From an uncultured Clostridia bacterium (GTDB lineage: Bacteria > Bacillota > Clostridia > Christensenellales > UBA1242): DNA of 64,000 nucleotides. The translations under genes were made by a program, and so were the position numbers. Below the pieces are notes generated by a model. It made no database searches. It was given only the letters and a program-made list of their open reading frames with translations, and was not told the DNA's origin. Of the stretch, positions 13,378-33,172 are shown one piece after another. The stretch is taken from the NCBI GenBank assembly GCA_934754355.1, contig CAKVID010000006.1, positions 2,004-66,003 on the forward strand, given 5' to 3'. Positions within the stretch are counted from its first letter, which is position 1. Each line of letters begins with the position of its first letter.

Positions 13378-13411
13378 TTATAATTTCCTTATATTTATTT
13401 GTGCGTACTTA

Positions 13412-13522
13412 GCGGGAGAGTAATCTAAATATCTCGTGTGGAAGCACGAGTACAAAGCGGAACGCGGGTTCGTGAGTGAAACTCACATGAGATGAAATCT
13501 CATAAACTCCCGCAATAAGAAG
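13412..13522 (-). ncRNA. Copy A of a ~107-nt structured repeat (multi-hairpin, closed by GCGGGAG/CTCCCGC); 5' leader of the kinase-like gene
   Basis: Nearly identical to 13843-13949. Hairpins are CTCGTG/CACGAG, GAAC/GTTC, GTGAG/CTCAC and ATGAGAT/ATCTCAT. It lies between the minus-strand promoter (13530-13558) and the start codon at 13377. Strand is assigned from the promoter and gene context. Confidence 0.5.
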
Positions 13523-13529
13523 TATAGTG

Positions 13530-13558: not shown

Positions 13559-13804
13559 TATTTATTCTAAAATAAACAAGTGAGACTAATTTTTAATGAT
13601 ATTGGCGTTGCCAATGATATTGACCGAGGGCAATGAAATTACTCACTTCGTTTGTAATGATATAAAATTGAACCTTTACTTTTGTACTAGCAAAAATATC
13701 GTTGCGTAGCAATATCATTCGCATTAGCGAATATCTCTGAAACGTAAGGATCAATTTCATTGTAAACAAAAAGAAAAGCCAATAAGACTTTCCTTCTTGT
13801 TTAC

Positions 13805-13824
13805 TTGGTGGACGTGGCGGGAGT
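13805..13824 (-). repeat. Direct duplicate of the last 20 nt of the tmRNA gene (att-like scar)
   Basis: tggtggacgtggcgggagtt at 13805-13824 is identical to 14004-14023. In RNA sense this is AACTCCCGCCACGTCCACCA, the 3' T-stem plus acceptor plus CCA. Both copies have the same orientation. Confidence 0.85.
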
Positions 13825-13842
13825 TGTCTATTTAGATACTCT

Positions 13843-13949
13843 GGGAGTAATCTAAATATCTCGTGTGGAAGCACGAGTACAAAGCGGAACGCGGGTTCGT
13901 GAGTAAAACTCACATGAGATGAAATCTCATAAACTCCCGCAATAAGAAG
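13843..13949 (-). repeat. Copy B of the ~107-nt structured repeat (an extended form starts at 13818)
   Basis: Differs from copy A by one loop substitution (gtgagtGaaactcac vs gtgagtAaaactcac). It also has an extra TATTTAGAT/ATCTAAATA hairpin between two GGGAG direct repeats. The closing stem can use GCGGGAG at 13818-13824. Confidence 0.7.
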
Positions 13950-13960
13950 AGTGTTGAATT

Positions 13961-14003: not shown

Positions 14004-14368
14004 TGGTGGACGTGGCGGGAGTTGAACCCGCGTCCATATATCCTGCAAACAACTTTCTACATAATTAGTTGCATTTTATTTAGAGTGGTGGAGAATATAT
14101 ACTTGCAACAAAACTCTATTCTCACCGCACAAAAATTTAGTTACAAAGTTGCCTTTGTGCCAACAAATTTTGCACCGCTATTTAATTTGATGCTTGCTTT
14201 TGACCAGTAGCGAAATCAAGGCAAACACGCTCTACTGCTAAACTTACGCAGCTAAAGCAAGTTCAGATTTACTATCTGCAGTTAAATTTAATTTTGAACC
14301 TATAACGCAGTTCAACCGTTATGCTTTTTTGTTCACACTAGAGTATATGTCGAAACCAATACACGCCC
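14004..14368 (-). ncRNA. ssrA: tmRNA (transfer-messenger RNA)
   Basis: The 5' GGGCGUG pairs with the 3' CACGUCC-ACCA, including G3-U. The 5' region has GGUUUCGACA. The T-arm is GCGGGUUCAACUCCCGC. An internal tag frame at 14279-14244 reads GCA...GCG TAA = ADSKSELALAA*. It lies immediately downstream of smpB. Confidence 0.93.
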
Positions 14369-29755: not shown

Positions 29756-30650
29756 TGTTGGGCGTAGACTGGATATATTTTTGCAGAATGAATTTCAAGA
29801 CAAAACTAGGTCTCATATTAAACACTGGATAGATAATGCAGATGTGCTTGTAAATGGCAAGGCTGTTAAAGCAGGGTATTCACTTAGAGAAAATGATATA
29901 ATTAATCTGGGCGAGATAGAGGAGAAAGTTTTATCCGCTAAGCCACAAGATATTCCTATAGATATTGTGTATGAAGATGAAGACTTGGCGGTTATTAATA
30001 AGCCACAGGGAATGGTTGTACACCCAGCAATTAATAATTACGATGGAACGCTGGTTAATGCACTTATGTATAAATTAGATAGTCTTAGTAGTATAAATGG
30101 CGTAATTAGACCGGGAATAGTACATCGACTAGATAAAGATACATCGGGATTATTGGTTATAGCCAAGAATGATAATGCTCATGTATCACTTAGTAATCAA
30201 ATAGCGACTAAAGAATGCAAGCGTATTTATTGGGCTTTGGTTGATGGGGTTGTTAAGAGTGATGGCGAGATAAAAACTCTAATTGGTAGAGATAAGAAAA
30301 ATAGACTTAAAATGGCAGTAACAAATGATGGCAAAGTAGCAGAAACAATGTATAGGGTATTAGAAGTGCTTGGCAATTATACTTTGGTGGAATTTGAATT
30401 GAAAACGGGAAGAACTCATCAAATAAGAGTTCATAGCGCGTATTTGCATCACCCAATTGTTGGAGATAAACTATATAATAACAATAAATGCAAATTCAAT
30501 CTCAATGGACAATTGCTACACGCAAAGAAATTGATTCTAACACACCCGAGGACTAATAAACTTATGACATTTGAGTGTGAATTGCCCGATTACTTTAAAA
30601 AAGTTCTTATTAATCTAAATTCTAAATTTGTAGATAGTAACTGTAAATAA
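29730..30650 (+). CDS. rluD: 23S rRNA pseudouridine synthase RluD-type (S4 domain plus catalytic domain)
   Basis: The N-terminal S4-like region is 'RLDIFL...SRSHIKHWI...V.VNGK', with 'HRLDKDTSGLLVIAKN' and 'GRTHQIRVH'. It overlaps lspA by 26 nt. Confidence 0.9.
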   Translation: MEWKITKDNVGRRLDIFLQNEFQDKTRSHIKHWIDNADVLVNGKAVKAGYSLRENDIINLGEIEEKVLSAKPQDIPIDIVYEDEDLAVINKPQGMVVHPAINNYDGTLVNALMYKLDSLSSINGVIRPGIVHRLDKDTSGLLVIAKNDNAHVSLSNQIATKECKRIYWALVDGVVKSDGEIKTLIGRDKKNRLKMAVTNDGKVAETMYRVLEVLGNYTLVEFELKTGRTHQIRVHSAYLHHPIVGDKLYNNNKCKFNLNGQLLHAKKLILTHPRTNKLMTFECELPDYFKKVLINLNSKFVDSNCK

Positions 30651-30683
30651 ATTATAAAATATTATTAAAAGGAGATAAAAATT

Positions 30684-30950
30684 ATGGCAAAAAATACTGG
30701 AGGAATGAGTTGGAGAGGATTTTTTAATCTACTTGCATTTATATCTGTTGTTTGTATTGGACTAGCATTTACAATAGGCAAAATAGGTGGCGGAAATTTG
30801 GCAAGTTCATTAAGACAAGTATCTGATATATTGGCATATTGTATAGTTGCAATTTCATCATTTTTCTTTGCTTACAATCGTAGACATTGGGCTTACTTTG
30901 TAGTTTGGGTAGTTTGTGTAGCATTAATAATTGTGTTTATGATAATCTAG
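30684..30950 (+). CDS. Small membrane protein (88 aa, 3 predicted TM segments)
   Basis: RBS AAGGAGA with 7-nt spacing. Three hydrophobic helices. No family recognised. Confidence 0.65.
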   Translation: MAKNTGGMSWRGFFNLLAFISVVCIGLAFTIGKIGGGNLASSLRQVSDILAYCIVAISSFFFAYNRRHWAYFVVWVVCVALIIVFMII

Positions 30951-30953
30951 GAG

Positions 30954-31431
30954 TTTCATACAAAGTAGTCTGCAAGACACCTTGATATGAAACGACGACG
31001 ATTGCCAGCAACCTGTATCAACGAAGTGGATACATATGACGAAGTCATAGCCAACAGAGTTGGGGGTTGGCTGGTATAATATGAGAAGTTCATATATATC
31101 AAATGATGATGTAGTCTGTAAGACACCTTGATATGAAACGACGACGATTGCCAGCAACCTGTATCAACGAAGTGGATACTTGTGACGAAAGTCACGACCA
31201 ACAGAGTTGGAGGTTGGCTGGTATAATGAGAAAGTAAAGTTTTTATGCAGTAAAAAATATCATAGTCTGCAAGACACCTTGATATGAAACGACGAAGATT
31301 GCCGGCAACCTGTATCAACGAAGTGGATACATATGACGAAGTCATAGCCAACAGAGTTGGAGGTTGGCTGGTATAATATGAGAAGTTCATATATATCAAA
31401 TGATGATGATGTAGTCTGCAAGACACCTTGA
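30954..31431 (+). repeat. Tandem array of 3 full copies plus 1 partial copy of a ~147-151-nt structured RNA-like element
   Basis: The copies are at 30954-31080, 31089-31227 and 31257-31377, with a partial copy at 31386-31431. The 'tagtctg' landmarks at 30966/31112/31263/31412 give periods of 146/151/149. See the findings for the fold and covariation. Confidence 0.85.
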
Positions 31432-31460
31432 AAATTTTAAAATTTTTAGGTATGTAACTT

Positions 31461-31805
31461 ATGAAGAAATTTTTACAAGATTTTTTTAAGAGCAAACTTA
31501 ATATAATATTATTTGTATTGCAAACGCTTGCAATAATCTTTGTGTGTTTGGCAAGCATTTGGAATTTAGCAGTTATGTTTGTTCTTATTTTTGAAGGATT
31601 ATTCTTTATAGTGTTTGGTATCAAAAATTTGCAGAAAAATAAAAAACTTGATGAACAACTAGAATTGTTAAGTAAAATAAGTATTGAGAATATTGATATG
31701 CAGAGAGAATGCAAGAGAAATAATCTAATCAAAAAATCAAATGTCTTTACATCAATCATTTATTTTTTGATGGGAGTAATGCTTCTAATTGTTGCAATAA
31801 TTTGA
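31461..31805 (+). CDS. Small membrane protein (114 aa, about 3 TM)
   Basis: Coherent hydrophobic helices separated by a charged loop (NLQKNKKLDEQLELLSK...). The RBS is weak. I prefer it over the overlapping minus-strand ORF. Confidence 0.5.
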   Translation: MKKFLQDFFKSKLNIILFVLQTLAIIFVCLASIWNLAVMFVLIFEGLFFIVFGIKNLQKNKKLDEQLELLSKISIENIDMQRECKRNNLIKKSNVFTSIIYFLMGVMLLIVAII

Positions 31806-31826
31806 CTTTATTTATTGACATAAAGG

Positions 31827-31855
31827 TTGCATATCGGTTATTTGTGTGGTATAAT
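31827..31855 (+). promoter_or_regulatory. Sigma-A-type promoter upstream of tig
   Basis: TTGCAT (31827-31832), 17 nt, TATAAT (31850-31855), with a TG extended -10. Confidence 0.55.
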
Positions 31856-31894
31856 AATGTAGTTTAACTAGTATATTGTTTAAGGAGAAATTTA

Positions 31895-33172
31895 ATGAAA
31901 TACGATATAAAAAAATTAGAAAATAAAAATCTTCAATTGAAGTTGGAACTAGACGCTAAAGAATGGGACGATTTGGTTGAAGAAGCATATAATAAAAACA
32001 AAGGTAAATATAAAGTAGAAGGCTTTAGAGCAGGCAAAGCACCAAGAAAAATTATTGAGAAGATGTATGGTCCACATATTTTCTTTGAAGATGCTATTGT
32101 TGAAGGCTTCAACAAACATTACACTGAAATTCTAGACAAAGATAAATCTATCGACCCTATTGATAGTCCAGATTTGAGTGTAGAGAAATTAGACGATAGT
32201 GGTATTACAATTGTTGCTGAAATTCCAGTAAGACCAGAAGTTAAATTGGGTGCTTATACAGGACTTAAGATTAGTGTAGAACCTAAAGAAGTAACAGATA
32301 AAGATGTAGAAGACGAATTGAAGAGAGTTCAAATACAAAATACAAGACTTGTTGAGAAAGATGGCACTATCGAGAATGGAGATGTTGCCAATATTGATTT
32401 CAAGGGAAGTACTGATGGAGAATACTTTGAGGGTGGTTCTGCAGAGGGTTTTGATTTGGAAATTGGAAGCCATAGTTTCATAGATAACTTTGAGGACCAA
32501 TTAATTGGTCTTAAGGCTGGCGATAGCAAAGATGTAATGGTTAAATTTCCAGAAGATTATCAAGCAGAGAATTTGAAAGGCAAAGATGCTAAGTTTGAAG
32601 TAAAAGTTAATGCTGTTAAAGTTAAAGAATTGCCAGAAATCAATGACGAATTAGCAAGCAATGTTTCTGAATTTGAAACTCTTGAAGAATATAAGAAACA
32701 TATCAAAGAACACCTAGGCGAACACGCCAAAGAAGATGCTAAAGTTCAAACAGAGAACAAAATCATTGATGAAATCGTAAGAACAATGGAATGCGATGTT
32801 CCAGAAATTATGATAAAGAGAGAACTTGATGCAATTATGCAAGATATGGAATATAGACTAATGTATCAAGGTGCTAATTTGGAAGCATACGCTAAGTATT
32901 TGAATACAACTGTAGACAAACTTAGAGAAGAAAGACATGACGATGCTTTGAAGAGCGTTAAGATTAGACTTGCATTGCAAGAAATTCTTAAAAATGAGAA
33001 ATTTGACGTAAATGATGAAGATGTAAATAAATATATCGAAAATATTGCAAAAAGAGTAAATAAATCGGTTGAAGAGTATAAAACTTCTCTTACTGATGAA
33101 AGATTGAATTACATAAGAAACGAAATTCTTATGAATAAACTACTTGAATTTTTGGTTGAAAAGAATAAATAA
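31895..33172 (+). CDS. tig: Trigger factor
   Basis: 425 aa with '[17 protein letters not shown]' (the ribosome-binding GFRxGxxP signature) and a central FKBP-like domain. Confidence 0.95.

Follow-up and report, generated by a model that had tools for sequence, protein, structure and literature searches.

In a 64-kb window of contig CAKVID010000006.1 from an uncultured Clostridia bacterium (the window is the whole stretch of DNA that was analyzed, 64,000 nucleotides), a tandem array of about 3.2 copies of a ~148-base unit was found at 30965-31431. It consists of three full units and a 21-nt partial unit and lies in the intergenic region 30951-31460, between the genes of two small membrane proteins of 88 and 114 amino acids (aa), both on the plus strand. 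The unit is a module with a recurrent fold that is more stable on the plus than on the minus strand, it is absent from sister species and from the databases searched, and it is assembled in one to three units with reshuffled types in contigs of the same species. The interpretation that we favor, tentatively and with slightly less than even confidence, sees the array as a young intergenic repeat of one lineage that is structured, carries a promoter, behaves like a variable-number tandem repeat (VNTR), is transcribed from the plus strand and has been amplified by unequal recombination.

A tandem array between two small membrane-protein genes had been proposed in an earlier reading of the sequence only, and its presence was borne out by several analyses. 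Tandem Repeats Finder called 30966-31431 with a period of 146, 3.1 copies and 83% matches, while a repeat search gave start-to-start spacings of 146, 151, and 149 and returned the 5' hairpin segment four times. The 18-mer GTCTGNAAGACACCTTGA was observed four times compared to 0.09 expected by chance, and the 22-mer of hairpin 1 three times compared to 0.00 expected. Unit 1 with its spacer shares 98% identity with unit 3 and its spacer, indicating that the array is the product of a recent duplication of a 297-nt block of two units. As a consequence of this higher-order duplication, the three units are not independent samples. Their G+C content is about 45%, compared to 31% in the genome.

Each full unit is composed of a 4-bp hairpin (P1), a near-invariant 24-nt linker (ACACCUUGAUAUGAAACGACGAcGAU), a four-way junction of about 74-78 nt, an extended -10 box and a variable AT-rich spacer of ~30-35 nt, the 3' strand of the junction continuing into the -10 box that follows. 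All parts lie on the plus strand. The core of unit 1 (30965-31080; covariance-model match of 144.6 bits) carries haplotype A of hairpin 2, with P1 at 30968-30978, the linker at 30979-31002, the junction at 31003-31076 and the extended -10-like box TGGTATAAT at 31072-31080. It is followed by a spacer of type A (ATGAGAAGTTCATATATATCAAATGATGATG, 31081-31110), which was delineated in the unit alignment and is AT-rich with a variable number of GAT repeats. The core of unit 2 (31111-31227; 143.7 bits) carries haplotype B (TTGTGAC-GAAA-GTCACGA), which is 1 nt longer; P1 is found at 31114-31124, the junction at 31149-31223 and TGGTATAAT at 31219-31227. Strain contig L118 carries the identical allele as its only unit. 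A spacer of type B (GAGAAAGTAAAGTTTTTATGCAGTAAAAAATATCA, 31228-31261, likewise from the unit alignment) leads to the core of unit 3 (31262-31377; 145 bits), which is of haplotype A with CCGGC and AGA variants and has P1 at 31265-31275, the junction at 31300-31373 and TGGTATAAT at 31369-31377. A second copy of spacer A, identified by the repeat search (31378-31410), precedes the partial unit at 31411-31431, which contains the P1 hairpin (31414-31424) and ACACCTTGA and gives a partial covariance-model match at 31411-31441.

The three-part fold described from the sequence was recovered, apart from an outer stem, as both the minimum free energy and the centroid structure of every unit. It comprises the 4-bp hairpin GUCU-GNA-AGAC, the unpaired 24-nt linker and a long-range helix (TTGCCAGCAACC/GGTTGGCTGG; in RNA form UGCCAGCAACC/GGUUG-GCUGGUA) that encloses three hairpins with almost no junction nucleotides, the number of unpaired conserved nucleotides being 0-2 per junction strand. 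Whole units 1 to 3 yielded fold z-scores of -3.7, -4.5, and -2.7, and the four-way junctions alone -4.0, -5.7 (unit 2: -5.65), and -4.1, with none of 200 shuffles equally stable. Because it is built of nested inverted repeats, the junction also folds significantly on the minus strand as well as with DNA parameters (z -5.2 to -5.4). In all 11 distinct core alleles, however, the plus strand was more stable than the minus strand by 3.3-8.2 kcal/mol, and three polymorphisms that exchange A-U and G-U pairs on the plus strand would be A-C mismatches on the minus strand, in agreement with the plus-strand preference suggested before. The outer stem (P0), which was thought to be rebuilt from different sequence in each copy, did not hold up. 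Compared with random 35-mers from the AT-rich window, the duplex energy between the upstream segment and its shared 3' partner TTGATATGAA gave p-values of 0.01, 0.16, and 0.60 for units 1, 2, and 3, and the complementarity of spacer A to the TTGATATGAA segment was not above chance. P0 was therefore rejected as a feature of the unit.

The 11 core alleles share a mean identity of 96%. Across them, the linker varies at 1 of 24 positions, but this near-invariance carries little weight given the high overall identity. In the consensus fold, 27 of the 35 pairs are invariant, and a true double change is seen at a single pair of hairpin 2, where A-U is replaced by G-C. Another double change of the same hairpin-2 haplotype, A70U/G87A, creates an additional pair. 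The individual changes reported by the sequence-only reading, from TATGAC/GTCATA to TGTGAC/GTCACG and from CCAGC to CCGGC, are present as described, but the covariation that they were taken to represent reduces to 1 of 35 pairs: the structure-preserving double changes are all one linked haplotype switch. Selection on an RNA hairpin is one possible cause of this switch. An equally possible one is a template-switch mutation in a DNA palindrome, a process documented to mimic compensatory hairpin changes in a single event (PMC8794818).

Related loci were obtained through the tig (trigger factor) gene just downstream, which gave 80 syntenic loci of uncultured Christensenellales-like Clostridia. In most of the 22 closest loci, which were inspected, the 88-aa and 114-aa genes adjoin, and the element was not found by nhmmer or by the covariance model R1, which was built from the units, anywhere in the syntenic loci (690 kb from 82 relatives). 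L034 and L055, whose tig is 91% identical, represent the closest species; there, 40-43 nt of unrelated sequence separate the two genes. The spacers of sister species measure 20-170 nt and are likewise unrelated, some of them containing an ordinary terminator and/or a promoter of their own. The element is also absent from L142 and L143, two further sister lineages in which the 114-aa protein is about 70% identical. Homologs of the 114-aa protein with 54-98% identity adjoin the 88-aa gene in relatives that lack the array. On this comparison, which is the decisive line of evidence, the element is a lineage-specific insertion into a plain operon spacer rather than a conserved leader of the 114-aa gene.

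Searches for the unit elsewhere gave a similar picture. As anticipated, no known RNA family was matched by the array: Rfam 15 cmscan of the whole window at gathering thresholds yielded no array match, and the same search of 30600-31900 at E <= 10 returned only chance microRNA-like matches, all outside the array, and no hammerhead, twister, twister-sister, pistol, hatchet or HDV match within it. Three exact words searched against 185,579 GTDB species-representative genomes produced only scattered single chance matches, which were rejected by nhmmer and the covariance model. Chance matches only were obtained with one exact word in JGI metagenome contigs and with three in IMG/VR, and distant-mode blastn against phage and plasmid records revealed no real match. 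Comparison of the unit with the masked window and with the tig-retrieved loci L001-L113 by blastn and tblastx revealed no local source sequence, and the full covariance model gave no second locus in the 64-kb window. The family to which the unit belongs thus appears, as judged by these searches, to be new and currently an orphan. ARAGORN found no tRNA-like gene in 30000-32500, and six-frame translation revealed no small hydrophobic open reading frame (ORF) per unit, unlike in the type I toxin-antitoxin systems Sib/Ibs and Ldr/Rdl. A number of other candidates, namely guanidine-II-like ACGR loops, attC/dif sites, a single-stranded DNA promoter or single-strand origin, a DnaA box in GTGGATACA, a ToxI-like antitoxin and tRNA-like processing signals, were dropped with no test in their support, on the grounds of a missing Rfam match, the wrong context, the wrong size or the lack of a partner gene.

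Independent gut-metagenome contigs of the same species were identified through the exact 88-aa protein or through 114-aa proteins with 97-100% identity, and all of them carry the element at the same site. The number of full units differs: one is present in contigs L115-L118, L121, and L137, two in L119 and L135, and three in the window and in L114/L136. The same partial unit follows the full units in all one-, two-, and three-unit contigs. Consequently, a 20-22-nt direct repeat, TAGTCTGNAAGACACCTTGA(TA), made up of the 5' end of unit 1 and the 3' partial unit, brackets the array even in its one-unit form. Cores of haplotypes A and B occur with spacers A and B in all combinations, suggesting recombination between units or between strains. 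The array therefore has the property expected of a VNTR, that is, an operon-spacer tandem repeat with one, two or three units among contigs with identical flanking proteins, although some of the short-read arrays may be collapsed.

The extended -10-like box TGGTATAAT with which each full unit was said to close was confirmed by pattern search at 31072, 31219, and 31369. A box of the form TGNTATAAT also lies ahead of the signal recognition particle (SRP) RNA, 8 nt from the 5' end that Rfam defines, and upstream of tig, there together with a TTGACA -35. Because it precedes these two genes, the extended -10 type is a credible promoter form in this organism. No intrinsic terminator or terminator-like site was found in 30400-32000, so that transcripts starting in the array should read into the 114-aa gene. 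A fold that would sequester the Shine-Dalgarno (SD) region through the ACACCUU segment was not significant (last partial unit plus start region, z -0.99).

If the array is a young transcribed repeat, its plus strand would be represented in transcripts reading through from the 88-aa gene as well as in those started at the -10 box of each unit, and the resulting RNA would fold into the four-way junction. The array might then act in cis in the manner of REP/BIME, BOX, and Correia elements, its RNA structure punctuating or stabilizing the message, and each unit could re-supply a fresh promoter to the downstream 114-aa gene. Unequal recombination would in this way alter how many promoters and structures are present, with a possible effect on 114-aa gene expression. 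The array may also be under little or no selection for a function.

Structured intergenic tandem repeats that vary between strains are a known kind of object, and we would place the array among the structured intergenic repeats (BOX, REP/BIME, MIRU-VNTR, and Correia-type) by its behavior, not by homology. The BOX elements of Streptococcus pneumoniae and the REP/BIME elements of enterobacteria are non-coding, hairpin-rich and intergenic or intra-operon; they are co-transcribed, contain strain-variable tandem sub-units and can stabilize or punctuate mRNA. The array resembles them as a non-coding, hairpin-rich operon spacer with a strain-variable number of units. It differs in that one locus is seen in the 64-kb window and one species carries it, and in having ~148-nt four-way-junction units, each with a promoter-like box. 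The MIRU-VNTR repeats of Mycobacterium tuberculosis measure 40-100 bp, occupy about 40 loci and often contain short ORFs that are coupled to the flanking genes. With them the array shares the position in an operon spacer and a copy number that differs between strains of one species, whereas its repeats are 146-151 bp long, out of frame and strongly folded, with one known locus. The Correia elements of Neisseria are highly dispersed, have inverted repeats at their termini and duplicate a TA target. Like these and other 'mobile promoters', the array is a small non-coding insertion which would place an outward promoter and an RNA-structure-forming inverted repeat before a gene, but no terminal inverted repeats, TA target duplication or wide dispersal were seen.

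Several observations weigh against the array being a repeat of this kind. While the REP and BOX families have tens to hundreds of dispersed copies in each genome and recur in related species, and Correia elements are also found in many copies per genome, the array locus is single within the 64-kb window. The units contain no recognizable -35, TGNTATAAT shows no enrichment in the window (14 occurrences compared to 10 expected), and the transcribed strand, the transcript ends and the promoter activity are all deduced from the sequence. Some of the one-unit contigs could be collapsed short-read assemblies, since several contigs end inside the array and the unit exceeds the assembly k-mer. Pair-breaking changes occur in 3 of the 11 alleles, indicating that the structural constraint is not strict. 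Finally, selection for an RNA with a function of its own, which a passive repeat would not need, is one way to read the double changes in hairpin 2.

A stronger claim, which we consider unlikely, is the most novel one: the unit would be a new structured non-coding RNA, a four-way junction with its own promoter, that has very recently arisen in or been acquired by one uncultured, Christensenellales-like gut species and is being amplified in tandem. The array would then display the birth and dosage expansion of an RNA gene or of a cis-regulatory RNA module, and the hairpin-2 switch a structure-preserving haplotype replacement. Should the element be transcribed and functional, it would show, as is rarely possible, a structured RNA and promoter element at the very beginning of its evolution, in one species and at one locus, with a copy number that is still changing and two structure-preserving hairpin-2 haplotypes segregating. 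As to practical use, the array provides a ready-made VNTR for strain typing of an uncultured gut bacterium. For motif hunters it is a caution, as striking folds and apparent compensatory change can belong to a young lineage-specific repeat, which a comparison with sister species quickly separates from a riboswitch.

A neutral repeat is a serious alternative. The array could be selfish or neutral DNA, that is, the trace left by a small element, non-autonomous and mobile or site-specifically integrated, or a neutral tandem duplication, with palindromes kept perfect by template switching and not by selection on an RNA. We rate this possibility as rather improbable. It would account well for the restriction of the element to one species, whose relatives have a plain spacer at this site, for the direct repeat TAGTCTGNAAGACACCTTGA(TA) that flanks even one-unit alleles, for the tolerance of pair-breaking alleles and for a junction that folds equally well as DNA. 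The C-GAA-G and C-GAAA-G loops also fit, as they recur in d(GCGAAGC) and d(GCGAAAGC), DNA mini-hairpins of very high stability, and template switching would make the apparent compensatory hairpin changes in one event. Other features of mobile DNA were not detected. The many copies that characterize dispersed repeats and miniature inverted-repeat transposable elements (REP, BOX, RUP, Correia, bcr1) were not found in the 64-kb window, in the 690 kb of relatives or in the 185,579 species genomes, and no copies were present in viral contigs or plasmids. Neither terminal inverted repeats nor a short target-site duplication were found at the unit ends, the flanking direct repeat of 20-22 nt being atypical of a target duplication made by transposases. 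Moreover, the steady advantage of the plus strand through G-U/G-T positions is unexpected for a palindrome in double-stranded DNA.

It is also improbable, in our judgment, that the units are tandem genes for trans-acting small RNAs (sRNAs), each starting at the preceding TGGTATAAT, with the linker ACACCUUGAUAUGAAACGACGAcGAU as seed, the junction as a stabilizing 3' domain and the copy number as dosage. An array of sRNA genes was the other possibility raised by the sequence-only reading. One extended -10 box per unit would place a start at the spacer before each structured core, and the SRP RNA of this genome is preceded by the same type of box. Further points in favor of sRNA genes are the bias of the fold to the plus strand, the GNRA-type GAAA loop borne by hairpin 2 of haplotype B and the single variable position of the linker, the last of them weakened by the overall identity of the alleles. 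The LhrC1-5 genes of Listeria and the Qrr sRNA genes have an intrinsic terminator each and are conserved across the genus. The array is similar to them in its head-to-tail structured units of ~110-150 nt, each preceded by a promoter (here a promoter-like box), and dissimilar in lacking terminators and conservation beyond the species. No terminator or U-tract follows any unit, so that discrete sRNAs would require processing, and no homolog was detected in the other species searched, which is unusual for a regulatory sRNA with targets.

A tandem riboswitch, in which the four-way junctions would be ligand or ion aptamers that cooperatively control the 114-aa gene, had been put forward by the sequence-only reading. 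We regard it as very unlikely, and it is not supported in any of its testable defining features. The 5' leader position upstream of a membrane-protein gene and the compact multi-stem fold are compatible with it, and tandem aptamers are known from other systems such as the glycine riboswitch, where, as in ToxI, repeated structured RNA units lie directly upstream of a gene. However, unlike tandem riboswitches, the array matches no Rfam class even at E <= 10 and is not conserved with the gene in any relative. The number of assembled aptamers would be one, two or three depending on the strain, and no expression platform is apparent, with neither a terminator nor a significant fold of the SD region (z -1.0). 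In addition, the promoter-like box after each unit would bypass the units upstream, and the junction offers almost no unpaired conserved nucleotides from which a binding pocket could form. ToxI repeats are about 36 nt long and precede an endoribonuclease toxin, whereas the ~148-nt units precede a conserved membrane protein in a housekeeping context. No type III toxin-antitoxin system of the ToxIN type was indicated, as the units of 146-151 nt are well above the roughly 34-45 nt of its short repeats and the downstream 114-aa protein has no ToxN/AbiQ-type endoribonuclease domain in Pfam or NCBIfam and is kept in relatives without the repeats.

The possibility that the region codes for protein, either through a minus-strand ORF of 267 aa or through a plus-strand ORF of 30 aa per unit, is close to refuted, which is in line with the non-coding nature proposed for the unit. 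The 267-aa ORF (30956-31759) is open across the whole array, but it runs antisense to the conserved 114-aa gene, its frame differs between units and its length tracks the number of units. For the 30-aa ORF (MKRRRLPATCINEVDTYDEVIANRVGGWLV, start 30988), all three differences between units 1 and 3 are synonymous in its frame; it was nevertheless rejected, since it has no Shine-Dalgarno sequence and no homologs and is frameshifted in haplotype B, the unit of four of the six one-unit contigs (L115-L118). Neither ORF belongs to a Pfam or NCBIfam family. A six-frame pseudo-protein query, designed to catch spurious ORFs overlying homologous repeats elsewhere, was run against 5.8 billion proteins and returned a single match, P0001, a spurious minus-strand ORF of 229 aa called at the same locus by the gene caller of one other assembly.

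The two genes flanking the array are both on the ORF list, on the plus strand. The 88-aa gene (30684-30950) is called as a gene in all strain contigs, and its TAG stop lies 14 nt 5' of unit 1. The 114-aa gene extends from 31461 to 31805. No Pfam or NCBIfam family was found for either protein. In L037, L038, L040, and L143, the ATG of the 114-aa homolog follows a -10-like box after only about 7-25 nt (in L037, TGTGATATAAT-N9-ATG), which suggests leaderless or very short-leader mRNAs for the 114-aa family. In two other relatives, about 820 nt separate the 114-aa gene from tig (L036, 3182-4000; L054, 3173-4000) and contain an apparent minus-strand gene, which neither the window nor the other relatives have.

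A second repeated element was observed elsewhere in the window. Weak R1 matches at 13.4-14.0 kb (E 0.3-2) were traced to this different element and rejected as relatives of the array unit. It is present in two 99%-identical copies, 427 nt apart, at 13405-13525 and 13832-13950, and is a G+C-rich, strongly folding element of ~110 nt in which a closing helix, GCGGGAG/CUCCCGC, surrounds hairpins with GAAA-type loops (z -5.4 and -4.7). No Rfam family was assigned to it, and one exact word searched against viral contigs found nothing. Since TGCTATAAT (13538-13530) lies ahead of copy 1 on the minus strand, the element may be a minus-strand sRNA gene. The transfer-messenger RNA (tmRNA) gene lies close by on the minus strand (14004-14368), and its 3' end, TGGTGGACGTGGCGGGAGTTG, is duplicated about 200 nt away (13807-13827 compared to 14005-14025), the pattern expected from an integration event at ssrA. 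The 13.4-kb element itself holds ACGCGGGTTC and, further on, AACTCCCGC, which together resemble a split copy of the T-arm and acceptor end of tmRNA. Between its two copies, sub-threshold matches to Gut-1 RNA (RF01706) were obtained at 13578-13644 on the plus and 13691-13762 on the minus strand (30-31 bits compared to a gathering score of 50, E about 5e-4 to 9e-4), and these consist of runs of short hairpins separated by UGAxAU.

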